Below, piece by piece: positions 5,646 to 52,603 of a stretch of 64,000 bases of DNA (position 1 is its first letter; the number at the start of each line of letters is the position of its first letter). Under the pieces are notes generated by a model that saw nothing but the letters and a program-made list of their open reading frames with translations, had not been told where the DNA came from and ran no database searches. Origin of the DNA: Bacillota bacterium (lineage in GTDB: Bacteria > Bacillota > Clostridia > Acetivibrionales > JANLFN01); contig JAEWTV010000082.1 of NCBI GenBank assembly GCA_023397675.1, positions 14,984 to 78,983 of the forward strand. Reading direction: 5' to 3'. The position numbers and the translations under genes are program-made.

Positions 5646-6614
5646 TTATCTGCTGAAGCCTGAAAGAGGATTTTTATCAACCGCATTTTTTAGTTGTTCC
5701 TTATCAAGATGTGTGTAAATTTCGGTAGTTGCAATGCTTTCGTGGCCTAAAAGCTCCTGCAATGCTCTGATATCAACATTTCCATACTTATACATCAAAG
5801 TAGCTGCAGTATGTCTTAGCTTATGGGTTGAATATCTTTGCGGATCCAGACCGGCAGATTTTATATATTTTTTAACGATTTTCTGAACGGATTCCTTACT
5901 GATACGCTGTTTTCTTTCACTGAGGAAAAGTGCATTTCTATCTTTAACACCATCAACCGGACGTACTGCTAAGTAGTCATTAATAGCCTTTATACAGGCG
6001 CCGTTAAGTGGAATGCCGCGTTCTTTGTCACCTTTACCGATAACAGTAAGGCTTTCATTCTTAATATTGTTAAGATTAATTCCAACAAGCTCAGAAAGAC
6101 GCAAGCCGCAGTTCAGAAACAGGGTAATGATAGCGTAATCACGTTCTGAATACTGGCCGTCAACACTTGATAAAAGCTGCTTGCTTTCTTCAACATTAAG
6201 ATACCTAGGCAGCCTTTTTACAATTTTGGGGGATTCAAGCTCGCTTGCTGGGTTTATATCAATTAGCTTGGCCTTATTAAACAAGTAATTAAAGAAGGAT
6301 TTAAGGCTTGCAACCTTACGGGCACGGGCATGAGCGCTGTTGTCACGGTCATTGCTGACAAACGACATAAATGCATAAAGATCGCTTAAGGTAACGGATT
6401 TAATGAGATTTATATCAACATCGGTAATTTCAATTTTTTCAAACTCTGTTTTTTTATCTATAAGTTTTTTATGAAGCTTCAGGAATCGGAAAAATACACG
6501 CAGATCATAAAAATACACAAGGACAGTATTAGAAGATTTTCCTTTGATGGTTTGAAGATAATTAAGAAAGTCACTTAAAACAGAAGGCATCTCAAAATCC
6601 CTGATAGTTTTCAT
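5646..6614 (-). CDS. tyrosine site-specific recombinase, XerC/XerD family
   Basis: N-terminal SAM-like domain (FLNYLQTIKGKSSNTV). Catalytic R (GLRLSEL), HKLRHTAAT and the final TEIYTH tyrosine are present. Confidence 0.85.
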   Translation of the reverse strand: MKTIRDFEMPSVLSDFLNYLQTIKGKSSNTVLVYFYDLRVFFRFLKLHKKLIDKKTEFEKIEITDVDINLIKSVTLSDLYAFMSFVSNDRDNSAHARARKVASLKSFFNYLFNKAKLIDINPASELESPKIVKRLPRYLNVEESKQLLSSVDGQYSERDYAIITLFLNCGLRLSELVGINLNNIKNESLTVIGKGDKERGIPLNGACIKAINDYLAVRPVDGVKDRNALFLSERKQRISKESVQKIVKKYIKSAGLDPQRYSTHKLRHTAATLMYKYGNVDIRALQELLGHESIATTEIYTHLDKEQLKNAVDKNPLSGFSR

Positions 6615-9242: not shown

Positions 9243-10358
9243 TTAGTTTTCTAATGATGCATTACTTTTTTCCCCGGATTTCTTACCTTTTTTAGTCTTT
9301 ACTTCTGCTGCTATCCAAATTATTATGGGCAATATCACTTGCATTGGAAATGCGTAATAAGGATAAACCTTAAATGCCCAGAACTTCATTTCCATAATGT
9401 TATCATAAATTATGTAGGATAAAAAAAACATCAATAATCCTGTTTGTATTACAATAGACCTATAATCCTTCAGATTGAATATTTTTCCTATTCCTTTACA
9501 TGTGACCAATAAACATACCGAGACTTTTATAAAAGTAGTAAAGACGTAAACGATAGATACAGTCACTTCGATCCTCTGAATAAAATCACCTACTGTTATC
9601 CTGCTAACAGCTTCATAAGATGGGATATAGAAACTGCCAAGCATATTGCCCAATACTGAAATATTTCTAATTGTAAAAGTAATTATAATAGCAGCTGGGA
9701 TTAAAATTCCCCATAAATAAACTGTTCTGGGTGATTTTTTAGTTTTTAAAGATGAGAAAATGCCAATAAATAACACTGTTTCAGCAAACGGAAAAGAAAA
9801 GGCAGCAAACCCACCTTTCAATACTGGTGCAATGCCATTCCCTAAAACCGGCTTTATGTAGTTCATATGATATTGTGATAACCCAAGTATTAATACTGAT
9901 CCCAAAATGAAAAAAACAATAGGTACAAAATATGTAGTGAATCTTCCCAGCACCTCTATCCCCAATCTTACCCCGATAATACATATTAATGCAAGGCAAA
10001 ACATAGGCGCATACATAGGTGTTTCAGGAATAGCCACAATATTGATAAATTCTCCAAAGTTACGAATAACCAGTGCTCCCAAATGAAAGGCATACCATAC
10101 ATATATGATAGATATAATTTTACCAAATAATTTCCCGAAGATTATTTCAAGAATATCAAACAAATGCTTCCCATGAAAAAGCATTAATATTCTTGAGTAA
10201 ATAAGAAGCATTGGAATAAACATTATAACGCTTAATATCCCGGAAATCCATGCATCATTTTTAGCATCACCGCCAATTCCGATAATCAGTGTGCTTCCAA
10301 TTACAAATGAGATTAAAATACATATTGCTTCTTTATTTGAAATTTGCTCTTTTTGCAT
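9243..10358 (-). CDS. spore germination protein, GerAB/GerXB-type permease subunit
   Basis: About 10 TM helices and an N-terminus MQKEQISNKEAICILISFVIGS typical of B subunits. The start was moved to the internal ATG at 10358 because the longer ORF overlaps the upstream D gene. Confidence 0.85.
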   Translation of the reverse strand: MQKEQISNKEAICILISFVIGSTLIIGIGGDAKNDAWISGILSVIMFIPMLLIYSRILMLFHGKHLFDILEIIFGKLFGKIISIIYVWYAFHLGALVIRNFGEFINIVAIPETPMYAPMFCLALICIIGVRLGIEVLGRFTTYFVPIVFFILGSVLILGLSQYHMNYIKPVLGNGIAPVLKGGFAAFSFPFAETVLFIGIFSSLKTKKSPRTVYLWGILIPAAIIITFTIRNISVLGNMLGSFYIPSYEAVSRITVGDFIQRIEVTVSIVYVFTTFIKVSVCLLVTCKGIGKIFNLKDYRSIVIQTGLLMFFLSYIIYDNIMEMKFWAFKVYPYYAFPMQVILPIIIWIAAEVKTKKGKKSGEKSNASLEN

Positions 10359-10372
10359 TATTAACCTGCCTT

Positions 10373-10582
10373 CTACTTTCCGAATATCGAAATGATCAAA
10401 TACCGAATTGGTTTTACAGGGCTTGGTATCTTTATATTGAGGCATAATAACATAGCAATTGTAAATGAAAAAAATGCAAGTATCGCATTAACCCAAAAAT
10501 CGCGCCAAAGCTTTTGCTTGTATAATGGTATGAACTCATAAATTGCTAAAAATGAGTATCCTATGATTGCTAAAATAAACAT
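10373..10582 (-). CDS. small 2-TM protein, germinant-receptor D-subunit-like
   Basis: 69 aa. It has paralogues at 16251-16490 and 50153-50371 in the same operon context, sharing the motif IKIPSP / VRIPSP / VKLSNP. Confidence 0.6.
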   Translation of the reverse strand: MFILAIIGYSFLAIYEFIPLYKQKLWRDFWVNAILAFFSFTIAMLLCLNIKIPSPVKPIRYLIISIFGK

Positions 10583-10584
10583 TG

Positions 10585-11736
10585 TTAATAATCACTCTCT
10601 TCAAGAGGCTTTGACAATACGGCACTGTTTTTTATATGAACCTTTGTTTTAACATTTACCGGTAAGTCTTTAAAGATTTGTTCCCAATTACTGCTCACCT
10701 TTTTCCAAACATTTGATTTATCTTCATGAAGCTTTGATGAAAATTCAAATATATCCGCATCATATTCAGACTGTACTTTTTTAATTAATGTCTCGATATG
10801 CTCCTTTAATTTTTTTTCTGTACTTTGTTCAAGTTTTTTACGTTCTTCTTCTTCAATGACGTTTTCTGAGCCTTCTATTTCACCAATTGCAACTGTTGTT
10901 TCTATATTCAGGTTAAACTTAATACCGGTAACATCTATTACAGGTGTAACTGTTGTTTTACTATAGAATATCTCAAGAGAAATGGGTGTTGAATTCTCTT
11001 GTGTTATTCCGACAAGTATCCCGCCTTTGATATCATTTCTGATGAAATTTAAAGCTTTCGTTTCTTCATCATTTAGAAATCCTGCCAGTTTATCATCTTT
11101 TATAATTGCGGCTCCAATTATTTGGGGCACCATTTTTTTATCAGATTTCTTAAGATTTATAGCAGGAATTACAGTTGACATCCCATCTGTTTGTATTTCA
11201 ATACTATACTTTAAAACATCTGTTAAAGGTGCTTTACTGAAGCTATCCTGATTTTTTATAGTTTCATCCAATTTAAAAGATTTAATATCCTCAGTAATCC
11301 CCTCACCTTCAAACATTTCCCTGGCAGATTCACCATTGGATATCAGAATGTTTACATCTTCTCTTGACTCAGCGTCACGAATATACCAATCAAGAATTTT
11401 CTTTAAACCTTCACTGGCAATATCTTTACTTAAAATGATAACTTTTGAATGACTCCAGTAGAGTCTTTTTCCGGTTAAGGATACGCCGTTTCTAACAGCA
11501 TCAAATACGGTTTTTCCTTTCATAGAAATTGGTTTTGATAATGTTTTACTATCTTTTCCTCCGCTAATTTGCACAATTTCAGCAGTTACAAGGTATTGTC
11601 CGTCTGTATCCTTATCTATTGCAACACCGGCAACAATTGCTAATTTATCAATTTCCTTGTAATTCCAACAGCCTGTGAGCATTGATTGAATTGCAGCAAT
11701 TATAATTAAAAGAAGAAAAATTTTTGTCCTTTTCAT
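10585..11736 (-). CDS. spore germination lipoprotein, GerAC/GerXC-type
   Basis: Lipobox LTGC followed by WNYKEID, the typical GerC start. AAGGAGA RBS. Confidence 0.85.
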   Translation of the reverse strand: MKRTKIFLLLIIIAAIQSMLTGCWNYKEIDKLAIVAGVAIDKDTDGQYLVTAEIVQISGGKDSKTLSKPISMKGKTVFDAVRNGVSLTGKRLYWSHSKVIILSKDIASEGLKKILDWYIRDAESREDVNILISNGESAREMFEGEGITEDIKSFKLDETIKNQDSFSKAPLTDVLKYSIEIQTDGMSTVIPAINLKKSDKKMVPQIIGAAIIKDDKLAGFLNDEETKALNFIRNDIKGGILVGITQENSTPISLEIFYSKTTVTPVIDVTGIKFNLNIETTVAIGEIEGSENVIEEEERKKLEQSTEKKLKEHIETLIKKVQSEYDADIFEFSSKLHEDKSNVWKKVSSNWEQIFKDLPVNVKTKVHIKNSAVLSKPLEESDY

Positions 11737-11741
11737 ATATG

Positions 11742-13316
11742 CTATTTCTCCTTGCTTTTTTTTGATGACTGTCTGACAAGGTTTTTGGCTGCAACAATTT
11801 TAGGCCTTAAGGTCATAGTCCACCATGGTGCACGAATCCACGCATCCTGTCCGTCATGGTCTTTAGCCCTGGTAACATTCATCATGTAAGGTACTCCGAA
11901 TGACCGGATACTCATTAAATGAAGATACATAATAAAAAAGGTTATCAAAAATCCATAGATACCCATAAATGCTGCACCAAATAAAAAAAATGTCCTAAAA
12001 ATGATGGTTGCGGTTATAAAATTCATGTTAATCAATGTAGTAATTCCTGTTATAGCAGTTACTATTATTACAGGAGCACTTACCAGTCTTGCTTCTACAG
12101 CAGCTTGTCCCAAAACAAGCGTACCGACAATGTTTACTGCTTGGCCTATAGGAGATGGCATTCTGGTACCTGCCTCGCGCAAAATATCAAATATAAAAAG
12201 CATCAAAATAAGTGAAAGTACTGTCGGAAAAGGAACACCTTGTCTGGAAGCAGAGATACTCAATAGCAAGGGTGTAGGCAACATTTCCTGATGGTAAGCG
12301 ACAATTGACAGGAATATTGCAGGAATAGCAACGGAGGTTACTGCAGTAAAACCCCTTATAGCACGATTAATTGAACCAAAAATAAAACTGTTATAGTAGT
12401 CTTCATTTGCTTGAAAATTCTCGACAACCAGATATGGAACTGTTAATACAAAGGGACTTCCGTCAACAAATAATGCTATTCTGCCTTCCAGAAGCTTTGC
12501 TGCGATAACATCAGGGCGTTCACTTGAACCAACCGTTTCAAACGGAGAAAAAGGTGCATCTCTTATAAGCTCCTGAATGTATCCTGAATCAATTATGCCG
12601 TCGATATCTATTTCATTCAGACGTTTCTCCAATTCATTCATTACATCCTTTAAAACCAAGCCTTCAATATAACAAATACATGTTTTTGTATTTGTCCTCT
12701 CCCCAATCTCCTTAAATTTAAACTTTAAGTCAGGATTTTTTATTTTACGACGAACCAATGACAGATTCATTATGATTGATTCAGTAAAGCCTTCCCTTGG
12801 ACCACGCACAACCCTTGTAGACTCCGGTTCAGTAATTGACCTTGTCTGCCAACCCTTGGAACTGATAACCAATGCTTTATCGTAACCTTCAAGTAAGAAA
12901 AGAGTATCCCCATAAATAACGGAACTTACTATATTATTGATGTTAGACTCAACTGATACATTATTGGAAACAATAACTTTTTTCCTTAACTCATCCAATA
13001 AATTACCGGTATCGATTTCCTTTGTCAAGTCACTGCGAAGAATGGGCTGTATAATGTTTTCATTAATAATTTCTGTATTTACCATTCCTTCAACGTATAT
13101 AATACAGCAATCAGCAGCTTTTAAACTCTTATTCTGAAATTCTCTTGTGATTAATGTTTCATCATTACTGAAAATGTTTTTAAACAGAGAAATATTTTCA
13201 GTTAGTGAGTTAACCAAAGCTTTTTTATCATTTTTTTTATTGTCATTTTTATTATCTTTATTTGTTGCATTATTGATTTCTTTAGTTGATTTATTTTCAG
13301 TTTTTTTCTTTTGCAT
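11742..13316 (-). CDS. spore germination protein, GerAA/GerXA-type
   Basis: Motifs VRGPREGFTES, SERPD and EDYY with C-terminal TM helices. The start was placed at the ATG at 13316 (GGGTGA RBS) rather than the ORF-track start at 13373. Confidence 0.9.
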   Translation of the reverse strand: MQKKKTENKSTKEINNATNKDNKNDNKKNDKKALVNSLTENISLFKNIFSNDETLITREFQNKSLKAADCCIIYVEGMVNTEIINENIIQPILRSDLTKEIDTGNLLDELRKKVIVSNNVSVESNINNIVSSVIYGDTLFLLEGYDKALVISSKGWQTRSITEPESTRVVRGPREGFTESIIMNLSLVRRKIKNPDLKFKFKEIGERTNTKTCICYIEGLVLKDVMNELEKRLNEIDIDGIIDSGYIQELIRDAPFSPFETVGSSERPDVIAAKLLEGRIALFVDGSPFVLTVPYLVVENFQANEDYYNSFIFGSINRAIRGFTAVTSVAIPAIFLSIVAYHQEMLPTPLLLSISASRQGVPFPTVLSLILMLFIFDILREAGTRMPSPIGQAVNIVGTLVLGQAAVEARLVSAPVIIVTAITGITTLINMNFITATIIFRTFFLFGAAFMGIYGFLITFFIMYLHLMSIRSFGVPYMMNVTRAKDHDGQDAWIRAPWWTMTLRPKIVAAKNLVRQSSKKSKEK

Positions 13317-13408
13317 ATAATCACCCTGATTTATTATTACCAAATCATCTATTAATACACAGGTTAGAACCAATGGAAAAGTAGAAAAAACAGGTCGATA
13401 TAATCCAT

Positions 13409-13440
13409 TGAATAAATTCTTTTATTCTTTAAACACTATT
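13409..13440 (+). promoter_or_regulatory. candidate forespore (sigma-G-like) promoter and palindrome in the divergent ger intergenic region
   Basis: GAATAA-N18-CACTATTA resembles GAATA-N17/18-CATACTA. GAATAAA-TTCT-TTTATTC is a 7-bp palindrome, so a GAATAA box occurs on both strands. Confidence 0.25.
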
Positions 13441-13484
13441 ATTAATTCATAAAATTAAGGTATTAATGGATGGAGCATATTTAA

Positions 13485-15062
13485 ATGAAGCACTTAACGA
13501 ATAAGAGCAGTAATATAACTGCGCAAAATGATGCTAATACTGAAAATACCACTATAAACAAGAATATGCTTCAAAATATAGATAAAATAAAAAATGAATT
13601 TGGTAATTCCACCGATCTTTTGATTAACATTTCCAAATTTAAAAACTTTCAGTACGCAAGCATATATATAGACAATATTATTGATAAAAATATTACAAAC
13701 AGCTTATCAATGGAAATATCAGAAATGCTGGAAGCAAAGGTCAAGAAAGAAGAACCTACACCGGAAGACTATTTTAATCAATTCTCCTCCTTTCTTACAG
13801 CCTTCAGAAAAGCTGAAGAAGGCTCGGATTTAAATAATTTATGTACTGATTTGTTAAGTGGAAAAACAATTCTTTTATTAGAAAGCTGCGATAAATACCT
13901 GTCTATAAAGTCTTTTTCAGTAGAAGGACGTTCTGTCGAAGAGCCTACAACTCAAAGTATAATCAGGGGACCAAAGGAAGGTTTTATTGAAAAAGTAGAT
14001 ACAAATATCGCACTAATCAGAAAAAGAATCAGGAATAAGGCATTAAGGGTTGAAAATCTGCTTTCAGGTAGCACAACAAATACGAAAATTGCTCTTATAT
14101 ATATCGATGGCATTGCCAGGAAAGACATTGTTGACGAAATCAGAAACAGGATAGAGAAAATAAAAATCGATGGAATTTTAGACAGTGGTTATATTGAAGA
14201 ATTAATCAAAGATGATAGGTATTCAATTTTCCCAGAATTCTTGAATTCCGAAAGACCCGATACTATAACTTCAGAACTTCTCGAAGGCAAAGTTGCAATT
14301 TTGGTTGACGGCACTTCGTATGTATTGGCTGCCCCTGCCCTATTTGTTGAATTTCTTCAGGCAAGCGAGGATTATTATCACCATTTTATAGTTTCATCAA
14401 TCGTCCGTATAATCAGATATGCAGCACTTTTTCTTACACTATTTGTTCCGGCGGGTTATGTTGCATTAATTACATTTCATCAGGAGATGATTCCTACACC
14501 ATTGCTGATAAGTATAGCTGCACAGCGTGAAGGGGTTCCCTTCCCTGCTTTTGTGGAAGCGATGCTGATGGAGGGTGTATTTGAAATATTAAGAGAAGCC
14601 GGTGTAAGAATGCCCCGGGTTATTGGCCCTGCAATATCAATTGTCGGAGCTTTGGTTTTAGGTCAGGCTGCCGTAGAGGCCGGTATAATATCTGCAGTTA
14701 TGGTAATTATAGTCTCAATCACTGCTATTTCAAGTTTTGCCATCCCCAATTATTCCATGTCCAACGCTATTAGGATGATCAGATTTGCTTTTTTGATTCT
14801 GGCAGGTATATTCGGTCTTTATGGAATTTTTATGGGATTTATTGCGCTGCTTCTCCATTTGTGTAAATTAAAATCAATCGGGGTTCCATATATGACGCCT
14901 GTTGCACCCAAAGCAAAATACGCAACAAAGGATACTATTATCAGGTACCCTTTATGGAAGAATAGAACTAGGCCTGCTGAAATAAGCTACTCAGACTCAC
15001 CCAGAGCAAGTGGAGATAATCCTGTTAGCTCAAAACAAAAAGAAAAACCGGAATTCAGGTGA
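13485..15062 (+). CDS. spore germination protein, GerAA/GerXA-type
   Basis: Motifs IRGPKEGFIEK, SERPD and EDYY with C-terminal TM helices. Confidence 0.9.
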   Translation: MKHLTNKSSNITAQNDANTENTTINKNMLQNIDKIKNEFGNSTDLLINISKFKNFQYASIYIDNIIDKNITNSLSMEISEMLEAKVKKEEPTPEDYFNQFSSFLTAFRKAEEGSDLNNLCTDLLSGKTILLLESCDKYLSIKSFSVEGRSVEEPTTQSIIRGPKEGFIEKVDTNIALIRKRIRNKALRVENLLSGSTTNTKIALIYIDGIARKDIVDEIRNRIEKIKIDGILDSGYIEELIKDDRYSIFPEFLNSERPDTITSELLEGKVAILVDGTSYVLAAPALFVEFLQASEDYYHHFIVSSIVRIIRYAALFLTLFVPAGYVALITFHQEMIPTPLLISIAAQREGVPFPAFVEAMLMEGVFEILREAGVRMPRVIGPAISIVGALVLGQAAVEAGIISAVMVIIVSITAISSFAIPNYSMSNAIRMIRFAFLILAGIFGLYGIFMGFIALLLHLCKLKSIGVPYMTPVAPKAKYATKDTIIRYPLWKNRTRPAEISYSDSPRASGDNPVSSKQKEKPEFR

Positions 15063-15068
15063 TATGTA

Positions 15069-16247
15069 ATGAAAAAGTTATTATTAGTACTCACTATAAT
15101 GTCAAATATGCTTTTAAGTGGATGTATGTCGGGAACAGAAATAAATAAAATTGGAATAGCTGTATCGGTAGGAATTGATAAATCTGAAGATGGCTATTTA
15201 GTTACTTATCAAGTAATGAATCCAAAAGCGATTTCTGCAAAGTCTCCCAATGAGGCGCCTATTGTGTTATATACGGAAAAAGGAAAAGATCTGTTTCAGA
15301 TAAAGAGGAAGATTACAGAGCAAGCCCCTAGAAAGATGTACCATTCTCATTTACGAACTGTAATTTTTGGTGAAGAAATTTCAAAAGAAGGTATTAAAGA
15401 AATACTAGATTTTTTTGTTCGTGGACATGAATATCGAACTGATTTTTATTTTCTTATAGCAAAAGGAACGACTGCTAATAATATTTTAAAAGTTATAACG
15501 CCTTTGGAAAGTGTATCACAATTAGAAATATATGATTCACTTGAAACCTCTGAGAAAGTATGGGCACCAACAAAAAGCATTAAAATATATGAACTTGTAA
15601 ACAAGATTATTTCTGATGGAGATAACCCGGTGTTGACAGGCGTTCATATTCTTGAGCCCAATGACAAGTCGGATTCCAATGACAACCTGAAGCTAAGTAA
15701 TTCTGCAAAATTAAGTGTAACAAGCCTGGGTGTATTAAAAAAGGATAAGCTTGTTGGATGGCTGAAGGAAGATGAAGGCAGGGCTTACAGCTACATCATT
15801 GGAAATATTAATAGTACAAGTGGATATGTTGACTATGAACAAAACCGTATATCTGTTGAGGTTATTAAGTCAGAAACAAAAAGAAAAGCTTATATTTTAA
15901 ATGGTAAACCCGCCATAAATATTGATATTGATTGGACAGCTAATATTTCTGCAATCACAGGTGATTTAGACTTAACAGATGAAGATATTATAAAAAAAGT
16001 GAGCGATTTGGCACAAGAAAAGATAAAAATGCTTTGTAATAATGTAGTAAAAAGGGCTAAAGAAGATTTTAGGTCTGATATCTTCGGTTTTGGTGAAGTT
16101 ATACACAGAGCTTATCCAAAACTATGGAAGAATAGTAAGGATAATTGGGATAAAGGATTTGCGGAGCTTCCTGTAAATATTAATGTAAAAGCCAAGATAA
16201 ATAATCTGGGTTCCAGTACGAAATCTATTTTTATGAAAGGGGATTAA
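15069..16247 (+). CDS. spore germination lipoprotein, GerAC/GerXC-type
   Basis: Lipobox LLSGC, collinear with the other two GerC paralogues. AGGTGA RBS. Confidence 0.85.
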   Translation: MKKLLLVLTIMSNMLLSGCMSGTEINKIGIAVSVGIDKSEDGYLVTYQVMNPKAISAKSPNEAPIVLYTEKGKDLFQIKRKITEQAPRKMYHSHLRTVIFGEEISKEGIKEILDFFVRGHEYRTDFYFLIAKGTTANNILKVITPLESVSQLEIYDSLETSEKVWAPTKSIKIYELVNKIISDGDNPVLTGVHILEPNDKSDSNDNLKLSNSAKLSVTSLGVLKKDKLVGWLKEDEGRAYSYIIGNINSTSGYVDYEQNRISVEVIKSETKRKAYILNGKPAINIDIDWTANISAITGDLDLTDEDIIKKVSDLAQEKIKMLCNNVVKRAKEDFRSDIFGFGEVIHRAYPKLWKNSKDNWDKGFAELPVNINVKAKINNLGSSTKSIFMKGD

Positions 16248-16250
16248 AAA

Positions 16251-16490
16251 GTGAATATTGTAGCTATCCTTGCTGTATTAACTTTTGCTGTAATATTATC
16301 TTTCATAGAAGTACCCAAAATGCTTAAAAACAAATCCTACAAAGAGTTCTGGAGCTTTTCAATTTTACTCATTATTGGTGTTATCTTGGCGATTCTAAAA
16401 AGCCTGGGTGTGAAATTGTCAAATCCATCTGATTGGGTGGCATGGGTATTTTCACCGTTGTCGGACTTGATTAAGCCTATTTTGAAATAG
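16251..16490 (+). CDS. small 2-TM protein, germinant-receptor D-subunit-like
   Basis: 79 aa with a GTG start after AAAGGGGA. Paralogue of 10373-10582 and 50153-50371. Confidence 0.6.
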   Translation: MNIVAILAVLTFAVILSFIEVPKMLKNKSYKEFWSFSILLIIGVILAILKSLGVKLSNPSDWVAWVFSPLSDLIKPILK

Positions 16491-16509
16491 AGATGAAAGG
16501 AAATTTGGA

Positions 16510-17628
16510 ATGAATAAAATCACAATATCAAGCCGCCAATTTGGGCTTTTAGTATCAGGCTTTATGTTTGGCTCTGCCCCACTTTTAATTTCATCCAGTG
16601 TTGCAGCTTTGGCTGGACCCGATTCATGGATCTCAATAATTATTGCTAGTGTTATAGGATTATTCATTGTTTGGATTCATTCTTATCTTGGTAAATTATA
16701 TCCTGATAAAACACTTATAGAGGTTATCCAGTTTGTACTGGGTAAATGGCTGGGCAGTTTTTTTTCTGTTAGCTTAATCTTAATATCCTTCATTACGGGT
16801 ATCCAGGTTATATGGTATGTAGGGGATTTTTTTACAACAATGTTTATGACAGACGCGTCGAATTACTATATAAATTTATTATTTATAGTTGTAATAGCAA
16901 TTGCACTGCTATATGGTTTGGAAGCAATGTTCAGGACAACTGAAATTGTCTTTTTGATAGGCTTCCCGCTTATGATAATATCTCTGATTATGCTTACACC
17001 TGAAATTAAATTAGATAACTTGCTGCCAATTATGGAAAAAGGGATAGGCCCTGCAATTAAAGGCGCAGTTCCAATTTTGAGCTTTGCTATCCTGCCGCTG
17101 ATAGCATTAAATATGATTTTCCCTACTAATACAGGGAATTTGAAAAAAGCCAAAAAAGCGATGTTTAGTGGTTATTTTTTAGGGATTATCACATTTTCTT
17201 TTGCAATTATGTTTTGTATTCTGGTCTTAGGAAGTACTGTTACTGCAAATTTACGTTTCCCGCTATTCACGGTAACAAAGGAAATCAATATAGGTACTAT
17301 ATTTTCAAGAGTTGAAGCTTTGATTGTATTTGTCTGGATTAGTACAAATTTTATTTCTACATTTGGATTTTTATATGTAAGTGTTAAAGGACTTTCTCAA
17401 TTATTAAAGCTTAAGGATTATAAAACATTGGTTCTGCCTCTTTGTTTAATTGCTGCTGTTTATTCTGGATTTATATATAAGAATGTTCCGTATGAAATCA
17501 AGTGGGATAGCTTGGTATGGACTCCTGTTTCGTTTACTTTCGGTCTTTTTGTACCTCTATTGCTGCTGGCTGTTTCATTTATAAGAAAAAAGTCTGGTAA
17601 ACAGAAGCAAAAAGGTTGTAAAAGATAA
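16510..17628 (+). CDS. spore germination protein, GerAB/GerXB-type permease subunit (copy 1)
   Basis: Multi-TM protein. Shares VIWYVGDFFTT and YYINxLFIVVxAIALLYGLEA with the next gene. Confidence 0.85.
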   Translation: MNKITISSRQFGLLVSGFMFGSAPLLISSSVAALAGPDSWISIIIASVIGLFIVWIHSYLGKLYPDKTLIEVIQFVLGKWLGSFFSVSLILISFITGIQVIWYVGDFFTTMFMTDASNYYINLLFIVVIAIALLYGLEAMFRTTEIVFLIGFPLMIISLIMLTPEIKLDNLLPIMEKGIGPAIKGAVPILSFAILPLIALNMIFPTNTGNLKKAKKAMFSGYFLGIITFSFAIMFCILVLGSTVTANLRFPLFTVTKEINIGTIFSRVEALIVFVWISTNFISTFGFLYVSVKGLSQLLKLKDYKTLVLPLCLIAAVYSGFIYKNVPYEIKWDSLVWTPVSFTFGLFVPLLLLAVSFIRKKSGKQKQKGCKR

Positions 17629-17678
17629 ACTCTAATGTACTTTGGATGAAGGAATATTGGAAGGATGAGTTTCCTTAA

Positions 17679-18782
17679 GTGAATAAAATTATAATATCAA
17701 ACTATCAATTATTACTTTTAACATCAGCATTTGTCGCTGGTGCTTCACCATTTATAGTTCCAACCATGGTTGCATCTGTTGCAGGAAAAGATGCATGGCT
17801 TTCTGTAATTATTGCAGCTATAGTAGGATTGTTGGTTGTTTGGACAAATATTTATTTAGCACAATTGCATCCTGGAAAAACTTTTGTTGAGTTTACGCAA
17901 CAAATACTTGGCAAATGGATTGGCGGCTTTGTATCTGTAATATTAATTATGATAGAACTTTTGGCAGGTACTGATGTTATATGGTATGTTGGTGATTTTT
18001 TTACAACAGTGTATATGCCCGGAATTTCAAGGTATTACATAAATATTTTATTTATAGTTGTTTTAGCGATTGCTCTTTTATATGGTCTGGAAGCTGTAGC
18101 AAGAGCCAGAGAGGTATTATTTGTTTTAATTTTTACACTTTTTATTCTTACTTTTTTATTGCTTACACCTGAGTTTAAAATTGATAATTTATTTCCGATT
18201 ATGGAAAAAGGAGCAGTTCCTGTACTTGCGGGTATGTTTCCGCTGCTGAATAATGCTGTCTTCCCCATTATATGTTTTACTATGATTTTTACAGCAAATA
18301 TTAAAGATATAAAGTCGGCAAAAAAATCAATATTCAAAGGCTATCTTTTGGGTATGTTTGAGTTGTTTACCGGTATGTTATTATGTGTACTAGTTTTAGG
18401 AGGTACTCTAGCCGGAGAAATGAGATATTCATCTTTCTCAATAACAAAGGAAATTGATGTTGGTGTAATATTTTCTCGTCTTGAAGCCTTAATAGTAATT
18501 GTCTGGCTGGTTATAAGTTTTTATGCTGCACTTATATATATTTATGCAGGTGTTCTAGGGCTTTCCCAGGTTTTAAAACTTAAAGATTATAAAAAAATCG
18601 TTATTCCGGTTTTATTAATTGTGGCCGTTTATTCAGGGATTGTGTATAAGGATGTTTCTTATCAACTCAACTGGGATAAAGTAGTAAGAACTCCTGCTGC
18701 TATTGTTTTCGGGTTTATTTTGCCTGTGATGCTACTGGTTGTTTCCTTAATAAGAAAAAAGTCTGCTAAGAAGAATAAATGA
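17679..18782 (+). CDS. spore germination protein, GerAB/GerXB-type permease subunit (tandem paralogue)
   Basis: Collinear with 16510-17628 over its full length. The GTG start gives an MNKIIIS N-terminus that parallels MNKITIS. Confidence 0.8.
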   Translation: MNKIIISNYQLLLLTSAFVAGASPFIVPTMVASVAGKDAWLSVIIAAIVGLLVVWTNIYLAQLHPGKTFVEFTQQILGKWIGGFVSVILIMIELLAGTDVIWYVGDFFTTVYMPGISRYYINILFIVVLAIALLYGLEAVARAREVLFVLIFTLFILTFLLLTPEFKIDNLFPIMEKGAVPVLAGMFPLLNNAVFPIICFTMIFTANIKDIKSAKKSIFKGYLLGMFELFTGMLLCVLVLGGTLAGEMRYSSFSITKEIDVGVIFSRLEALIVIVWLVISFYAALIYIYAGVLGLSQVLKLKDYKKIVIPVLLIVAVYSGIVYKDVSYQLNWDKVVRTPAAIVFGFILPVMLLVVSLIRKKSAKKNK

Positions 18783-24437: not shown

Positions 24438-24478
24438 GTAAAAATAATAGTCCCTGTAAGGGACTTGGTTCTGATAGC
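24438..24478 (-). repeat. 41-nt hairpin module, copy 1 (terminator-like on the minus strand)
   Basis: Stem AGTCCCT-GTA-AGGGACT. On the minus strand it is followed by ATTATTTTTAC. About 80-85% identical to 51650-51689. Confidence 0.8.
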
Positions 24479-24535
24479 CGTGGGTTTAGGTATAATTATC
24501 AATTGCTAAAATATCTATAGTTATTCTTCGAAGTG

Positions 24536-25104
24536 TCAATGCTGGACTTTGCCGCTTTTGAACTGCCCAAAATCGGCGGAAAAGGCACCGCTCGCCGCGG
24601 AGGCCAGCCCTGTGAAAGCCTACTGCGGCATCTGTAAGCTGCTCAATCGCTCTCAAGCCGGGACGATGCTACTTCGCTATCCTGCTCAGACGCTACTTGA
24701 ATGGCCATCCGGGCCATTCACCGGCATTCGACCTTCGTTCGCAGCAACACCTGCCAGCTCGGCTTTCAATGGGCAGAGATGCGGGTAAACTCTTCGAAGC
24801 AGCCACGTTAGAACTTTGTTTACAAAGTTCGGTATAGCCACCCATGACCCTAGCCCTGAAGGAGCTTGGTGGAGTGACATAGAAATTCCTGCATGCATGT
24901 ATCAAGTCCGGCGAATTCGTCATGGAAGACGGATTCAGGTGGGTATGTCATGGATGACATTGGAACCGGCCGGACAAAAGCAAGTATGCAGGCTTGGAAG
25001 TTCTGTCACGGAATCCGTTGCGCCCGGCTTTTGAAGCCATCACGGCGCTTGAGTGAAGAGTTTTCCTCCGATTTTGCTCTCTCAAAAGCGGAAAAGGAAT
25101 ATTA
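24536..25104. repeat. G+C-rich structured repeat element, contiguous copy (candidate large ncRNA or non-autonomous mobile element)
   Basis: Homologous to 51388-51648 plus 53853-54209. About 58-62% G+C by hand count over 24541-24660, in an AT-rich genome. Many local and long-range helices, and the termini 24552-24583 and 25061-25091 pair. Confidence 0.85.
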
Positions 25105-25138: not shown

Positions 25139-25639
25139 TTATTCATACCCTTTCTCCTCTTTCCAGCCACCAATTAGATCTACCCACAAATATGCAGACA
25201 CTTTTCCATCCTGTGGCTTGGTTACAGCAATATACATATCCCTCTGAGTATGTGTCCCCGCCTTTATTACGCTTGTAAGATCCATTATTGTGTAGTCATA
25301 ATTTGTTTTTGTAAGACCCCAATCTGAAAAAGTTGGCGTGTCGTAATCATTATAATTTAGTCTTTCAAATTTTTTATAATAACCAAGTACTTTATCTACC
25401 TCATCTGCCCGCATGTTCAACTTAACATTTATTACATAGGAAGTTCCATACCCTGATTCCACCATATATTTTTCTATATACGAATCATTCGGTATGTTTG
25501 TATTGAAATATTTATTTACTTTTTCAGCACTGGGATTTTTAATACTTAGATAAAAAAATACATTAGTTATAAGTAAGCAAATAAAAACAATAACTAGAAT
25601 TGATCCAATAATAATAGCCCATTTAACACTTTTCTTCAC
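25139..25639 (-). CDS. N-terminally membrane-anchored hypothetical protein
   Basis: A GTG at 25639 after a GGGGGG RBS gives MKKSVKWAIIIGSILVIVFICLL (TM anchor). No recognisable domain. Confidence 0.55.
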   Translation of the reverse strand: MKKSVKWAIIIGSILVIVFICLLITNVFFYLSIKNPSAEKVNKYFNTNIPNDSYIEKYMVESGYGTSYVINVKLNMRADEVDKVLGYYKKFERLNYNDYDTPTFSDWGLTKTNYDYTIMDLTSVIKAGTHTQRDMYIAVTKPQDGKVSAYLWVDLIGGWKEEKGYE

Positions 25640-25888
25640 CTTTATACCCCCCAAAAAAAGTACAGAACAGACTCAACTACTTCTTACCGTTTGTTATAGG
25701 AACATCCTAATTGTTATATATAGTATACGATTTAGAAGAATAATTTTCCAGGGATATTATCATTATTGTGCAGCAACGAAAAAAGTAGAATGAAATAAAA
25801 AAGCACGAACCGGTAAAAACCCCAATGCGTACGTATTAACACATCTTACATTATATTTTAAGTCTTGGATTTAATCTGCAGTTAAAAT

Positions 25889-28074: not shown

Positions 28075-29718
28075 CTAAATTTTATAATCAATTGAAATTC
28101 TGTTTGAACCTATTTCCTTCCTTATAACCTTTTCGGCATTAACAAGATTAATTTTATCTTTAATAAGGCCGAAATTCATGCCTACCAGCTTAAAGCCGAT
28201 TTCCTCCAGCGAGTTAAACAGCTCATTATATTCAGAAGAAAAGGCTTCAGAGAGCTTTTTGTCTTCAAGCTTGAAGTTTATCATAACACTCTTGCGACTT
28301 ACAGATATAAGCGAGTCTACCCGTCCAAGATTCTGAGTATCCAACGATAGGAATACAGTCATGTTTTCGGGATCAAGCTTCTTTTTTGTCCCTTCCCTCT
28401 TGAGTATATATAACTCAGCTGTTTTATCGCTTCCTTTAAGGCTTACCGGTATCTGAAGATATGCAGCGTAATTGCTTGCTTCATTCATGAACCTAAGATT
28501 ATTTTGTATATTGTCAAGCTTGTCTGTAAGCTGGTCTTTTAAAGGGTATGCAGAGGCAACAATTTCCTGCTTTATTACATCCAGCTTTTCGTAAAGCTCT
28601 TTATAGGCATTTTTAACAGCTCCCTGTGTCAGGTCTCCGGCCTCGACATCCAGTAAAGCTTTAGAGAATAGCTTGTTTATATGCTTTTTAGTATCCTCTA
28701 TAGAATTGTTATTTGCATTTAAAAGTTCATTCTTATTAAGCTTATCAAGCTCTTTGAACAAGGATTGCATGAATTGAGTTTTTCCAGGTTGTTCAGGAAT
28801 ATCTTTTAACTGGTTTTTTATAAAATCAATTACCTTTTCAGCGTCCATCTTATTGGCAGGCTGTGATGTAATAAAGTTATCAAGCTTTTGAGCAAAGCTG
28901 CTGTTATTGAATATTTGCTTTATTGCTTCAGCATTATTGGACATAGTTTTATCAGAAAGCTGTGAAATAATATTTGTAAGTAATTCTTTTGCATTAATTT
29001 TTACAGGAGCATCGGTAGAAGTTGCGTTTTGCGTTATTGAAGCCTGTTCATCAGCAACAGTAGTCGCTGATGGTGAGTATTTGGCGTCGACACGTTCAAG
29101 ACCTTTTGAAATAGCTTGAAGAAGGTTTGAGTCTTTAATTTCCGGCAGCTTATCTATTATATCCCTGATGGACGAAGTAACTTTGAATTTTTCATCGGTA
29201 AGCTGCTGAAGTGAATTTAAATTATTCTCTATAGTCGGAATATTGTTTTTTAAGATAAACACAGCCTTTTCAGGAGTTATTCCTGTTGCTTTGAAGTTTG
29301 ACATTAGCTGTGACGCCTTATCTACGTTTTCCTTTGAGATAGGCAGACCCGTAGCACCAAGCTCCTTTGCGATATCAATGGAGTTATTATCAGGTGAAAT
29401 ACCTAAAGACATAAGTGTTTTGGAAATTGCATCATTTTCATTTAATACAGGCACTGGCTGCTTAAGGGTTTGAAGAAGCAGCTTGCCGTCCTGAAAACCT
29501 TTTACGGTAAAATCAACAAAGTCCCCCTGCTTTGCATCAATTGAACCGAGGGTTTTTGCAGTTACAGAAGTACCGTCAAATAGCTTTAAAATAGCTTCAT
29601 CAGTCGCAATTTCAAGTATTTGCGCTCTAAGCACATCTCCGATGTTAAGTTTGCTTAATATATCGGAAATGTTTACTGTCGTACCTGCCTGTACCAAATT
29701 AAACCCGTCAATTCGCAT
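28075..29718 (-). CDS. FliK/hook-length-control-like protein (YlqG-type)
   Basis: C-terminal Flg_hook-like segment (ELYILKREG...VFLSLDTQNLGRVDSLISV). The start was placed at the ATG at 29718 after TGAGGT. Confidence 0.65.
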   Translation of the reverse strand: MRIDGFNLVQAGTTVNISDILSKLNIGDVLRAQILEIATDEAILKLFDGTSVTAKTLGSIDAKQGDFVDFTVKGFQDGKLLLQTLKQPVPVLNENDAISKTLMSLGISPDNNSIDIAKELGATGLPISKENVDKASQLMSNFKATGITPEKAVFILKNNIPTIENNLNSLQQLTDEKFKVTSSIRDIIDKLPEIKDSNLLQAISKGLERVDAKYSPSATTVADEQASITQNATSTDAPVKINAKELLTNIISQLSDKTMSNNAEAIKQIFNNSSFAQKLDNFITSQPANKMDAEKVIDFIKNQLKDIPEQPGKTQFMQSLFKELDKLNKNELLNANNNSIEDTKKHINKLFSKALLDVEAGDLTQGAVKNAYKELYEKLDVIKQEIVASAYPLKDQLTDKLDNIQNNLRFMNEASNYAAYLQIPVSLKGSDKTAELYILKREGTKKKLDPENMTVFLSLDTQNLGRVDSLISVSRKSVMINFKLEDKKLSEAFSSEYNELFNSLEEIGFKLVGMNFGLIKDKINLVNAEKVIRKEIGSNRISIDYKI

Positions 29719-29733
29719 AATCAAAACCTCACA

Positions 29734-46232: not shown

Positions 46233-47831
46233 ATGTTTAATTATATATATAAAAAAATGCACTATTTAAAAATAAAAAATCAAGAATCAGCTTTCTCTCC
46301 CATGGAAGATACTAAGGATGATAACTCCTTAGTAGATAACTTTGAAAGGAATTTAAATACCTTCAAAGATTTACTGGGAGTTAACACTGACGTTGTAATA
46401 AGGGATTTTTTATTTGGACATAACAAAGCAAATAAAAGTGCTATCATATATATAGAAGGCATAACTGATAAATCAGTAATAAATGACAATATTATAAAAC
46501 CTATCATTTACGACCTTCTTCTTCTGCCAAATGATAAAGAAGCCCGTAATGTGAGTATTGATACAATAAAATCTACTTTAATATCAGTAGGAAATATAAA
46601 AAAGTCTTCCTCCATAAATAATCTAATTGACAGTTGTCTTTCAGGAAATTCGATATTATTGGTAAATGATTCAAATGAAGCTCTTATAATAAGTACAGTC
46701 GGCGGAGAAAAAAGAAGTGTGGAAGAACCTAAGACCGAAGCTTCGGTTAGAGGCCCAAGAGAAGGCTTTACTGAGGCTTTAAAAACAAATTTATCATTAT
46801 TGCGCCGTAAAATAAAAAGTGCTGACTTGACATTCGAAACTGTTACTATTGGTGAAAAGACAAAAACAAATGTAAGTATAGCATATATAAAAGGTATAGC
46901 AACAAAAGAACTTATCGATGAAATAAAAAACAGGCTGAATAAAATTAAAATTGATTCAATTCTTGAATCCGGATATATTGAACAATTGATTGAGGATGCC
47001 CCTTTTTCGATATTTTCAACCATCGGTAACAGCGAAAAGCCTGATATAGTATCAGCAAAGCTGCTTGAAGGCAGGGCTGCAATATTTGTTGACGGTACAC
47101 CTTTTGTTCTTACTGTTCCAATGGTTTTTATTGAAAACTTTCAAAGTTCGGAAGATTATTATTCACGTCCATATTTTGCAAGCATGCTGAGGATATTGAG
47201 GTTTTTTGCATATGGCTTAAGTATCCTGGCACCTGCTACTTACGTTATTTTATCATCATTTCACCAGGAACTGATACCCACCCCATTGCTGTTTACAATG
47301 GCTGCATCACATGAAGGAGTTCCTTTTCCATCCGCAGTGGAAGCATTTATTATGATAATTACCTTTGAAATACTGAGAGAAGCCGGGGTTCGTTTACCCC
47401 GCCCTGTCGGACAGGCTGTAAGTATAGTTGGAGCTCTGGTAATAGGTGAATCGGCTGTCAATGCCGGGATTATTGGTGCGCCTATGGTAATTGTTGTTGC
47501 TATAACCGCTGTTTCAAGCTTTGTAGTTCCTGCACAAACAGATAGTGGAGCTATTTTGAGAATTATTCTTTTATTGCTTGCCGGTTTTATGGGTGGATTT
47601 GGAATCTTGATAGGTTTACTTGGACTTATGGTTCATATGGCATCGCTAAGATCTTTTGGAACACCTTATCTTTCACCCATTGCTCCACTAAGCATCGGTG
47701 ATTTGAAAGACAGCTTTATAAGAAGTCCTTTATGGATGATGAATAAACGGCCAAAAGGTATTGCGTTCAACTCATCAAAAAGGCAGGCTGATGATATGAA
47801 GCCAAAACACCCGAAAAAGAAGGACAATTAA
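46233..47831 (+). CDS. spore germination protein, GerAA/GerXA-type
   Basis: Motifs VRGPREGFTEA, SEKPD and EDYY with C-terminal TM helices. The exact start is uncertain. Confidence 0.9.
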   Translation: MFNYIYKKMHYLKIKNQESAFSPMEDTKDDNSLVDNFERNLNTFKDLLGVNTDVVIRDFLFGHNKANKSAIIYIEGITDKSVINDNIIKPIIYDLLLLPNDKEARNVSIDTIKSTLISVGNIKKSSSINNLIDSCLSGNSILLVNDSNEALIISTVGGEKRSVEEPKTEASVRGPREGFTEALKTNLSLLRRKIKSADLTFETVTIGEKTKTNVSIAYIKGIATKELIDEIKNRLNKIKIDSILESGYIEQLIEDAPFSIFSTIGNSEKPDIVSAKLLEGRAAIFVDGTPFVLTVPMVFIENFQSSEDYYSRPYFASMLRILRFFAYGLSILAPATYVILSSFHQELIPTPLLFTMAASHEGVPFPSAVEAFIMIITFEILREAGVRLPRPVGQAVSIVGALVIGESAVNAGIIGAPMVIVVAITAVSSFVVPAQTDSGAILRIILLLLAGFMGGFGILIGLLGLMVHMASLRSFGTPYLSPIAPLSIGDLKDSFIRSPLWMMNKRPKGIAFNSSKRQADDMKPKHPKKKDN

Positions 47832-47857
47832 TGCTTTTATAATAACCGGAGATGCAT

Positions 47858-49033
47858 ATGGGAAAAATTAAGAAATTTTTTATTTTACTTATAACATGTA
47901 TATATTTGATGTTCTTTACAACAGGTTGCTGGAACAGCCGGGAGCTAAATGCTATTGCAATTGTTTTAGGAACCGGAATTGACAAGTCACCTGAACAGGG
48001 TAAGATACAGATTACTGCACAAATAGTCAAACCTGAAAGCTTAAGGTCTTCAGGTAGTAATAAAGGCGGAGGGAGCTCAAACGACAAAAGTTTTTGGAAT
48101 GCATCCTATGACGGAGAAACAGTATTCAGTTCTATAAGAGGGTTGACTCATGTTTCGCCCCGAAAGCTATTCTGGCCGCATAACCAGGTTATTATTTTCG
48201 GAAAAAGCGTTGCCTTCTCAGGTATTAAAGAATACATTGACTTTTTTCTACGTGATCATGAACCCCGTATCAGCGCATACATCCTTGTTTCAGATACAAC
48301 TGCCAGAGATGTTTTTGAAGTAACACCAAAGCTTGAAAAAGTTACTTCCATGAATATCAACAGTCTTATGAAAAATCAATCATCAACATCTCAGACAGTT
48401 GTAACAAAATTTAAAGAATTTTTAACTGATTATATGAGCAAGACAAAAGTCTGTATTGCGCCAATTATACGTATAACAGGTGAAGGCGAAGGTAAAACAA
48501 TCAGTGTTTCAGGTCTGGCTATGTTTAAAGATTTAAAAATGACAGGTCAGCTCGATGAAAACGAAACCAGAGGAGTTTTATGGGCTACCGGTAAAGTAAA
48601 AAGCGGAATTATTACAGTTGATATTGCTGAAAATAACAAAAAAGTCAGCTTTGAAACTATTAAAGCAAGAAGTAAAATTACACCTGAAATAAAAGATAAC
48701 ACTATTATAATGAAAATCAATATTAACGCAGAAGGTAATATCGGAGAAAATACTGGTAATTTGGATATAACCAAGTTAGAGGTAATAAATGCTCTTGAAA
48801 AAGCAGTAACTAATACAATCAAAAATGAAATAATGTCAGCTGTAAAAAAGGCAAAAGAATTTGATACCGATGTTTTTGGTTTTGGTAATTTACTATATGA
48901 GAAATACCCGGAGCAATGGTTACACATTGGCAATGACTGGGATGTCATTTTTAAAAATGTCCAGACAGAAATATCTGTAAATACAAATATTATTCTTGAA
49001 GGAAAAATAAATAAACCGGCATCAATGCATTAA
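47858..49033 (+). CDS. spore germination lipoprotein, GerAC/GerXC-type
   Basis: Lipobox FTTGC followed by WNSRELN. The ATG at 47858 is better spaced from GGAGA than the one at 47852. Confidence 0.85.
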   Translation: MGKIKKFFILLITCIYLMFFTTGCWNSRELNAIAIVLGTGIDKSPEQGKIQITAQIVKPESLRSSGSNKGGGSSNDKSFWNASYDGETVFSSIRGLTHVSPRKLFWPHNQVIIFGKSVAFSGIKEYIDFFLRDHEPRISAYILVSDTTARDVFEVTPKLEKVTSMNINSLMKNQSSTSQTVVTKFKEFLTDYMSKTKVCIAPIIRITGEGEGKTISVSGLAMFKDLKMTGQLDENETRGVLWATGKVKSGIITVDIAENNKKVSFETIKARSKITPEIKDNTIIMKININAEGNIGENTGNLDITKLEVINALEKAVTNTIKNEIMSAVKKAKEFDTDVFGFGNLLYEKYPEQWLHIGNDWDVIFKNVQTEISVNTNIILEGKINKPASMH

Positions 49034-49048
49034 TGGGAGATTAGATTT

Positions 49049-51178: not shown

Positions 51179-51387
51179 AAGTACCTCTATGATATTTGTT
51201 TTGGATTATAATACCATAGCATAAGCGATAAACTCAAGATATAGGAACATAATAAGCAAAATAGGAAACTCCCGTGCTAAATAATACACCGGAAGTTGGT
51301 AATTTTAGCATATAAAGATGATATAGTACTGTGGGTTAAAACCCACGGCGCGAATTAAATACATATTAATTATGGGGTAAAACCTTT

Positions 51388-51648
51388 TCAATCCTTTATT
51401 TGCCGCTTTTCAGCGACGTGAAGCGGCGCAAAAGTCGCCGCTCGCCGCGGAGGCTGCCCTTGTGAAAGCCTACTGCGGCATCTATAAGCTGCTTAATCGT
51501 TCTCAAGCCGGCACGATGCAACTTCGCTATCCTGCTCAGATGCTACTTGAATGGCCATCCGGGCCATTCACCGGCATTCGACCTTCACTCACAGCAACAT
51601 CTGCCAGCTCAGCTTTCAATGGGCATGGGATGCGGGTATGACTCTGTA
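51388..51648. repeat. G+C-rich structured repeat element, 5' half of the split copy
   Basis: About 90% identical by eye to 24587-24790 (roughly 19 differences in about 205 nt). Starts with the same TCAAT...TTTGCCGCTTTT as the contiguous copy. Confidence 0.85.
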
Positions 51649-51649
51649 G

Positions 51650-51689
51650 GTAAAAGAATAGTCCCTGTAAGGAACTAGATTTTGACAGC
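51650..51689 (-). repeat. hairpin module, copy 2 (acts as a minus-strand terminator for the cargo operon)
   Basis: Stem AGTCCCT-GTA-AGGAACT, followed on the minus strand by ATTCTTTTAC. It lies about 25 nt downstream of the stop of ORF 51714-52100. Confidence 0.75.
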
Positions 51690-51713
51690 ATTGAGTAAAA
51701 TCCACGCGTTATT

Positions 51714-52100: not shown

Positions 52101-52182
52101 TTTGAAATCCTCCTTGTACTAACTTTATTTTGTATCCAACGTCATTATAAAGGATGGAGTATAGTACAAGGTCAAGAATTTT

Positions 52183-52587: not shown

Positions 52588-52603
52588 TATATCACTTCCG
52601 TTT

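Follow-up and report, generated by a model that had tools for sequence, protein, structure and literature searches.

The 64,000-nt stretch of DNA analyzed here (the window) spans positions 14,984 to 78,983 of contig JAEWTV010000082.1, from a Bacillota bacterium of the class Clostridia (GenBank assembly GCA_023397675.1). We show that a G+C-rich element at 24547-25096 of the window is one copy (W1) of a lineage-restricted, multi-copy, non-coding intergenic mosaic repeat. The element consists of palindromic units at its two ends, T5 and T3, and two large central domains, B and C. Both halves are selected for single-strand folding, apparently on opposite strands: the right half contains domain C, a member of the TwoAYGGAY RNA family, and the left half contains domain B, which is a new 168-nt domain. 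Approximately eleven full or partial copies were recovered, from at least three related genomes.

An initial annotation of the window, made from the sequence alone, had held that the element could not be assigned to any RNA family. This proved wrong for ~150 nt. A scan with Rfam covariance models, the check which that annotation had itself proposed, identified a match to TwoAYGGAY (RF01731) at 24867-25016 on the plus strand, with 52.3 bits versus a gathering score of 43. A second match in the window, at 53979-54129 (+), scored 53.4 bits against the same threshold of 43, and the family was also matched at the related loci L005, L006, and L014. Other families of clan CL00106, the Rfam clan to which TwoAYGGAY belongs, gave lower-scoring overlapping matches. 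Otherwise, nothing but TwoAYGGAY was found for the element in scans of the window, of short stretches (E ≤ 10, both strands), and of the related loci; in agreement with the initial annotation, there was no match to the OLE, GOLLD, ROOL, HEARO, raiA, or group I/II intron models. The element is not a wholly new giant RNA; a known motif accounts for ~150 of its 550 nt. TwoAYGGAY was described as an RNA motif of unexplained function by Weinberg et al. in 2010 (PMC2864571), is known from Clostridia, and was still called unexplored in 2025. The only proposal for the motif comes from Gardner and Eldai (PMC4333381), who matched a CsrA-binding motif to its loops. A literature search returned no account of the present element and no tested function for TwoAYGGAY.

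Domain C (24861-25024, plus strand) comprises the TwoAYGGAY match and an outer helix, GGAGC/GCGCC. Within the P1 stem, two adjacent hairpins are formed: hairpin 1 (24913-24936), with the loop AUGGAA, and hairpin 2 (24945-24960), with the loop UGGA inside AUGGAU. P1 and both hairpin stems are kept. Among six copies, compensatory changes were detected at 5 base pairs (7 events), including the re-pairing of hairpin 1 in L025. One-sided changes have the polarity of a plus-strand RNA, with seven that keep a G-U pair on that strand versus one giving A-C, and two U-G pairs are conserved in the consensus. The predicted folding energy is -64.0 kcal/mol for the plus strand versus -52.3 kcal/mol for the minus strand. 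Domain C is clearly selected for folding on the plus strand and, with a score above the family threshold, the expected loops, and covarying stems, is a member of TwoAYGGAY. In L025 (5455-5480), the loop of hairpin 1 is a GUGA tetraloop instead of AYGGAY, and this copy falls below the Rfam threshold; in the stem of this hairpin, both partners are substituted at two pairs and one partner at two others, and pairing is preserved.

Domain B (24607-24774) is a 168-nt rod-like domain that ends in a three-way junction and for which wobble polarity and folding energy favor the minus strand. Read on that strand, it has a long stem, the three-way junction, and two adjacent GGA-loop hairpins, alpha (24698-24720, loop CGGAU; UGGAU or AUGGAU in other copies) and beta (24668-24693, loop AGGAUA). 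Across eight copies, the minus-strand loops are (C/U/AU)GGAU and AGGAUA, the exception being L003, with CGGAC and AGGACA. The closing helix, which pairs GCCC..TGAAAGC with GCTTTCA..GGGC, has one compensatory double change, from A-U to G-C, in L004. Of the one-sided changes, five produce A-C on the plus strand, equivalent to G-U on the minus strand, and one has the opposite polarity; the contrast between B and C in this respect gave a Fisher P value of 0.026 when events were counted as independent. Helices 3 and 5 are 100% paired on the minus strand versus 95.9% and 94.3%, respectively, on the plus strand, and the folding energy is -72.8 kcal/mol (minus) versus -64.3 kcal/mol (plus). These data favor the minus strand for domain B. 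A lean toward the plus strand in the initial annotation thus holds only for the right half of the element, where domain C resides, and the left half favors the minus strand. In all, GGA-loop hairpins number four in the element, two to each strand, and the two similar domains that contain them have opposite orientations. The layout of domain B resembles that of TwoAYGGAY, of which it is not a demonstrated member. As a separate observation, positions 24737 and 24750 covary in eight copies, being G/C in four and A/T in four, and L025 has G with T; the two positions lie in no predicted helix and could reflect a tertiary contact or a subfamily marker.

The composition of W1 sets it apart from its surroundings. 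The G+C content is 53.5% over 24547-25096, compared with 36.1% for the whole window and 28.8% and 21.4% for the immediate flanks; over 24541-24660, it reaches 60.0%, in line with the 58 to 62% obtained earlier by hand count. All five local hairpins listed in the initial annotation were found in the sequence. Folded as a whole, the 560-nt stretch gave -216.5 kcal/mol for the plus strand (z = -3.7 relative to dinucleotide shuffles) and -224.4 kcal/mol for the minus strand (z = -6.4). The element had also been described as closed by pairing of its two ends. In W1, this pairing is nearly perfect, with outer arms at 24547-24561 and 25082-25096 (15 nt, 93%) and inner arms at 24568-24583 and 25061-25076 (16 nt, 94%), but the ends are mismatched in L003, L014, and L025. 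A conserved T5:T3 closing helix was dropped from the model, as end units of different sequence types are mixed within copies. Another helix, between 24784-24795 and 25055-25066, is present in W1 but is not conserved by the other copies.

The copies are mosaics of a limited set of modules. The idea of a single 570-nt RNA gene conserved as a unit could not be upheld, since the ends, B, and C combine variously: W1 and L003 have the order T5-B-C-T3; L006a, A'-B-C-T3; L006b, T5-ins-A'-B-T3; L004, A'-B-X; and L025, T5-ins-A'-B-C-T3-H2-H1. Here, A' is an alternative 5' module (CTGGGGCGAAACCTGTTCGCCGCCACGGTTTCCCCCAG...CCATGGCTCGCC), X is an alternative 3' module, and H1 and H2 are small hairpin units. 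L018 is a 150-nt mini copy in which A', with most of B deleted, is followed by T3. L005 (3177-3600) is rearranged: its T5 abuts domain C in inverted orientation, beyond which lie the 3' portion of B, oriented forward, and an X-like end. Domain B is found in all copies save the most reduced. Differing types of T unit are mixed within single copies in L003, in L025, and at the second locus of the window; the units H1, H2, T, A', and X occur in a different combination at each locus, and all copies are intergenic.

That second locus had been reported as a single further copy at 51388-51648. It is made up instead of two separate truncated copies flanking four genes: 24548-24787 matches 51399-51638 (88%), and 24749-25093 matches 53860-54204 (84%), 2.2 kb beyond the left piece. 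The left copy, W2L (51399-51640, +), has a T5 of a different sequence type and domain B only, with H2 upstream (51329-51348) and H1 downstream (51657-51676). The right copy, W2R (53853-54204, +), has a 17-nt remnant of A' (CCTAGGGCGAAACCTGT), the last ~30 nt of B, the linker, C, and T3. One copy split by an insertion was considered and rejected; because W2R opens with an A' remnant and has a different type of linker, the two pieces are read as independently truncated copies.

In W1, T5 (24547-24596, +) is a palindromic unit, CCGCTTTTG-N7-CAAAATCGG, followed by GGAAAAGG..., and forms an inverted repeat with T3 (25061-25096, +), CCGATTTTG-N6-CAAAAGCGG, which is approximately its reverse complement. 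T units in general have 9-bp arms (CCGCTTTTG and CAAAAGCGG) around a 6- to 10-nt spacer, plus GnAAAAG, and fall into at least three sequence types. Domains B and C are separated by a variable linker (24775-24860) containing a conserved hairpin, GAACTTTG-TTTA-CAAAGTTC, at 24811-24830 and the sequence GGTATAGCC; in other copies, the linker has an insertion of 25 to 30 nt. A tail (25025-25060, +) with a small hairpin, GGCTTTTGAAGCC, connects domain C to T3. Outside the left end lies H1 (24446-24465, minus strand), a small G+C-rich hairpin, AGTCCCT-N3-AGGGACT, followed by a T-run. H1 is terminator-like, and a hairpin of this kind had been noted for the minus strand at 24465-24449 and is indeed present; the unit recurs at 51657-51676, in L018, and in L025. 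A truncated H2 hairpin unit (CCGTGGGTTT...) is located at 24478-24490, and its complete form, CCGTGGGTTnnAACCCACGG, is found at 51329-51348 and in L006, L018, and L025. H1 and H2 travel with the element, on either side of it (L018 9700-9775, L025 5668-5710 and 5817-5840, and L006 4865-4885), and in W1 and L018, the orientation of H1 is that of a terminator acting on transcripts that exit the element.

The host belongs to an uncultured clostridial lineage whose nearest named relative, judged by a neighboring aminotransferase, is Pseudoclostridium thermosuccinogenes (71% amino acid identity). An exact 20-mer from the most conserved block of domain B occurs at five places in the metagenome-assembled genome (MAG) JAEZTC01 (Bacillota bacterium OH_PDB_31) and had no other match among 185,579 species genomes. 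Two further full copies, L014 and L025, were located in ENA metagenome assemblies via spurious open reading frame (ORF) calls. The short-read contigs L002 and L022 of the same strain stop where T5 meets B at both window loci, the behavior expected of contigs that run into a repeat. BLASTN found no match in 72,556 plasmid or 50,697 phage records, and two 22- to 24-mers had no match in viral contigs. Of the word scans of JGI metagenomes, one was empty and the other returned 7 contigs in which similarity was limited to the searched word, which we take as chance. Pairwise identity of domain B among seven aligned copies is 88 to 94.5%, whether the copies come from the same genome, the same locus, or another species. 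Domain C is 78.5 to 89% identical among copies, and the flanking coding DNA of the two species is ~86% identical.

Comparison of orthologous sites revealed that the presence of the element varies between close relatives. No element occupies the site of W1 in L015 (95% identity of the aminotransferase), and in L018, the site holds only the ~150-nt mini copy, together with H1 and H2. With one close relative lacking it at this site and another retaining only ~150 nt, the element is a dispensable repeat at a given site, not a housekeeping RNA. L018 and the window have the H1-H2 left flank and ~15 nt of the right flank in common; this pattern suggests one ancestral insertion at the site, later remodeled. 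As a separate matter, the 171-amino-acid gene next to W1 (25139-25654, minus strand) has a 3' end unlike that of its counterparts of 155 amino acids in L018 and 174 amino acids in L015, and the spacer by W1 is, to judge from these sequences, variable beyond the repeat itself.

A similar comparison bears on the genes between W2L and W2R. The interval 51641-53852 contains genes for a small membrane protein, a MerR regulator, a Big_5-like lipoprotein, and a GNAT acetyltransferase. The MAG has one contiguous copy (L003) beside the right flank of W2R (L003 versus window 54868-59661, 86%) and lacks the four-gene block. The 2.2-kb difference looks like a gene gain or loss mediated by the repeat. Elsewhere in the MAG, two copies in inverted orientation (L006 1665-2215 and 4890-5390) bracket a 2.7-kb block with genes for an ECF sigma factor, a zf-HC2 anti-sigma factor, and a DUF4179 protein; the block is located between a sporulation-type sigma gene and rpsB.

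The initial annotation had argued that the element is non-coding on the grounds that its ORFs are not conserved in the other copy. This argument was an artifact of the length threshold, since the same plus-strand frame is open for 59 codons at 51462-51641, but the non-coding conclusion stands. Variable sites show no codon periodicity (14/9/9 by codon position), and the ORFs of the element had no Pfam match. A search of 5.8 billion proteins found one ORF relative, and a search of 1.84 billion representatives found two; every one of these is a spurious call within the same element. The minus-strand ORF had no protein relatives. Small proteins, one or more, might be supposed to be encoded here, a candidate being the 79-amino-acid plus-strand ORF at 24549-24788, since the frame open at 51462-51641 is also open in L006 (106 and 144 amino acids) and has been called as genes P0001 and P0122. 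However, at this G+C content, chance alone would be expected to produce long open frames, and in L001 the gene caller made no call over the element. The absence of a third-position excess and of Pfam matches, with nearly no protein relatives, led us to reject a coding region; we consider it scarcely conceivable.

We propose that the element is a non-autonomous mosaic repeat that would supply a two-GGA-hairpin RNA domain, a candidate CsrA site, whichever strand is transcribed; in our estimation, this account has about an even chance of being correct. B and C appear to share a topology (a long closing stem, a three-way junction, and two GGA-loop hairpins) that would be selected on opposite strands. 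With C folding on the plus strand and B apparently on the minus, transcription from either side, for example, by read-through from a neighboring gene, could yield an RNA with one correctly folded two-GGA domain. GGA sequences presented in paired hairpin loops are the recognition element of dimeric CsrA, and the repeat could act as a portable protein-binding RNA cassette of the CsrA type or as a decoy. Because the end units are palindromic and the element is present at some sites and absent from their counterparts, we suggest that it may spread at the DNA level, by transposition or recombination via these ends, with an enzyme supplied from elsewhere in the genome. As to transcriptional context, the minus-strand gene 25139-25654 has no terminator before W1, as the initial annotation had stated and inspection of the sequence confirmed, and H1 lies beyond the element; at W2R, the plus-strand GNAT gene runs directly into the copy. 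In its strongest form, the proposal would make the element a strand-symmetric mobile RNA cassette whose two GGA-hairpin domains are convergent in design and insertion of which, in either orientation and in any transcribed spacer, would add a CsrA-type site to a host transcript or create a decoy. We regard this extension as speculative and rather unlikely.

Several findings weigh against the proposed cassette. The minus-strand call for domain B rests on six substitution events; the domain is ~90% identical among copies, and its covariation is thin, with one double change. On the minus strand, domain B gave no TwoAYGGAY match even at E ≤ 10, and its likeness to the family is topological only. 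Inspection of the sequences flanking the copies revealed no consistent promoter or terminator, and the orientation of the element relative to neighboring genes differs between copies. A crude motif search detected no csrA in the window or in the ~230 kb of related loci. There is no transposase or recombinase gene near any copy, and no target-site duplication was recognized. Two GGA loops per strand are few compared with known CsrA sponges, and the overall GGA count on the plus strand, 13 versus 9.1 expected, is not in marked excess. Candidate sigma-70 promoters, internal or upstream, were also sought, and none was convincing.

An account without any RNA role would describe the element as a purely selfish non-autonomous transposon of the miniature inverted-repeat transposable element (MITE) type, in which the structured halves are mirror-image DNA ends bound by a transposase. 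Such an element would have inverted-repeat ends, multiple copies with internal-deletion derivatives, and an orthologous site unoccupied in one relative and occupied in others, all of which are observed here, and the location of the GGA-loop hairpin motif on opposite strands of the two halves is the symmetry expected of transposon-end binding sites. Psychromonas copies of TwoAYGGAY also share repeated flanks, and copies from gut metagenomes lie within inverted repeats of 40 to 50 bp. Yet the polarity of G-U versus A-C changes and the compensatory substitutions show that single-strand folding, and not the duplex sequence, is selected, and the conservation of the AYGGAY loops across phyla, in stems that differ, points to a widespread host factor. 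Nor is there a transposase gene in the window or beside any copy, and individual copies combine end units of differing sequence types, of which there are at least three. A G+C content of 53% in a genome of 36% would be unusual for a resident MITE. The lack of a consistent direct repeat at W1, L003, L006a, L006b, L014, L018, and L025 is a weak negative, as the boundaries are blurred. On balance, we judge a purely selfish MITE to be unlikely, although it deserves to be taken seriously.

The recombinational reading of the ends can be taken in another direction, with the T units as core sites of a site-specific recombinase that inverts or excises the DNA between them. The arm-spacer-arm layout of these units (9-bp arms and a spacer of 6 to 10 nt), the inversion of domain C relative to T5 and the B fragment in L005, the bracketing of small gene blocks by pairs of copies (2.2 kb in the window and 2.7 kb in L006), and the presence of a tyrosine recombinase gene in the window at 5646-6614 would all fit such an invertible or recombination-prone segment. 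However, that gene is 18 kb distant and of a common XerC/D-like type, the same locus was not observed in both orientations, and ordinary homologous recombination between repeats would account equally well for the loss of gene blocks; the conserved, covarying interior is left unexplained. We consider this possibility very improbable. The reading closest to the initial annotation is that of a single trans-acting plus-strand RNA of ~550 nt, in which T5 and T3 form a closing helix and the UCC loops of B kiss the GGA loops of C. This could account for the nearly perfect end pairing of W1, for a whole sequence that folds better than its shuffles, and for one apparent compensatory change linking the ends of W1 and the second copy; the B loops, read on the plus strand (AUCCG and UAUCCU), are complementary to the C loops (AUGGAU and AUGGAA). 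It is difficult to reconcile with modules that occur separately and in different orders, with the absence of C from L004 and L006b and of T5 from L006a and L004, or with the mismatched ends of L003, L014, and L025. One-sided changes in domain B give A-C mismatches on the plus strand, neither a promoter nor a terminator was seen for that strand, the locus is empty in a close relative, and no large-RNA family was matched. We think a single RNA of this kind improbable.

If the mobile cassette proposed above is correct, TwoAYGGAY would be cargo of mobile repeats, not a classical small RNA or cis-regulatory element. The occurrence of the motif as a module of a dispensable, reshuffling repeat, accompanied by an opposite-strand twin, shifts the question away from which gene is regulated, and the twin-domain layout offers a testable lead on a motif that has remained unexplained since 2010. 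Copies of the repeat would, in addition, mark break points for the gain and loss of gene blocks in these genomes. For annotation, the case advises care: a G+C-rich island in an A+T-rich clostridial genome can be a mosaic repeat and not a single large RNA gene.

The window contains several other features. Tandem glycine riboswitch aptamers (RF00504, 55.3 and 40.5 bits) are located on the minus strand at 56275-56362 and 56382-56457, upstream of a minus-strand gene (54878-56116) with SHMT and aminotransferase domains; at the orthologous spot of the MAG (L003 3988-4167), the glycine-GGAnGA model matched below threshold. The tyrosine recombinase gene at 5646-6614 (minus strand) encodes a 322-amino-acid protein with a Phage_integrase domain and adjoins a WYL/HTH regulator gene, and no link to the repeat was found. 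Three separate GerA/GerAC/spore-permease germinant-receptor sets lie within the 64 kb (9243-18782 and 46233-50146), from which it is evident that the host forms spores. Flagellar genes of FliK-like and FlhB-like type are located nearby, at 28075-29724.

Among known systems, TwoAYGGAY itself offers the most direct comparison. The domains of W1 and W2R share with the published motif the pair of AYGGAY hairpins, the long closing stem, and stem covariation, the taxon fits, and the published examples from Psychromonas and gut metagenomes are likewise found within repeated or inverted-repeat flanks. The present element differs in that the motif is fused to the new domain B, of like topology on the opposite strand, and to palindromic end units, and some copies of the repeat (L004 and L006b) are without the motif altogether. 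The sequence GAAAGCCUAC, which the element has in common with Psychromonas flanks, is at chance level given the amount of sequence compared, and words from domain B did not occur in the portion of the published TwoAYGGAY alignment with flanks that was compared. The CsrB/RsmZ sponges resemble the element in having GGA in hairpin loops, with paired sites whose spacing would suit a CsrA dimer. Known sponges, however, carry many such loops, whereas the element has two per strand, is multi-copy and dispensable, and lies in sequence where no dedicated promoter or terminator was found.

As a repeat, the element can be set beside two further classes. Bacterial interspersed mosaic elements (BIMEs), made of repetitive extragenic palindromic (REP) units, and the pneumococcal BOX elements are extragenic multi-copy mosaics of short G+C-rich palindromes in variable order and orientation, and they are often transcribed within neighboring mRNAs. 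The present repeat is likewise an intergenic mosaic of palindromic units in variable combinations, but REP and BOX units are much smaller and simpler than its central domains (168 and 164 nt), and its copy number so far is low, at least five in ~860 kb of the MAG. Repeats of the REP/BIME type are characterized by an associated REP-type tyrosine transposase (RAYT) and by tens to hundreds of copies per genome. In common with MITEs, it is ~550 bp long, non-coding, and multi-copy, with terminal inverted repeats and deletion derivatives, and its presence is polymorphic, the same site being empty in L015, occupied by a mini copy in L018, and occupied by a full copy in the window. It departs from MITEs in its mixed end types, in having no recognized target-site duplication and no parent insertion sequence that we could find, and in an interior that is under selection for single-strand folding. 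The element as a whole is most like enterobacterial BIMEs or pneumococcal BOX elements in its mosaic logic and most like MITEs in its ends and its polymorphism.

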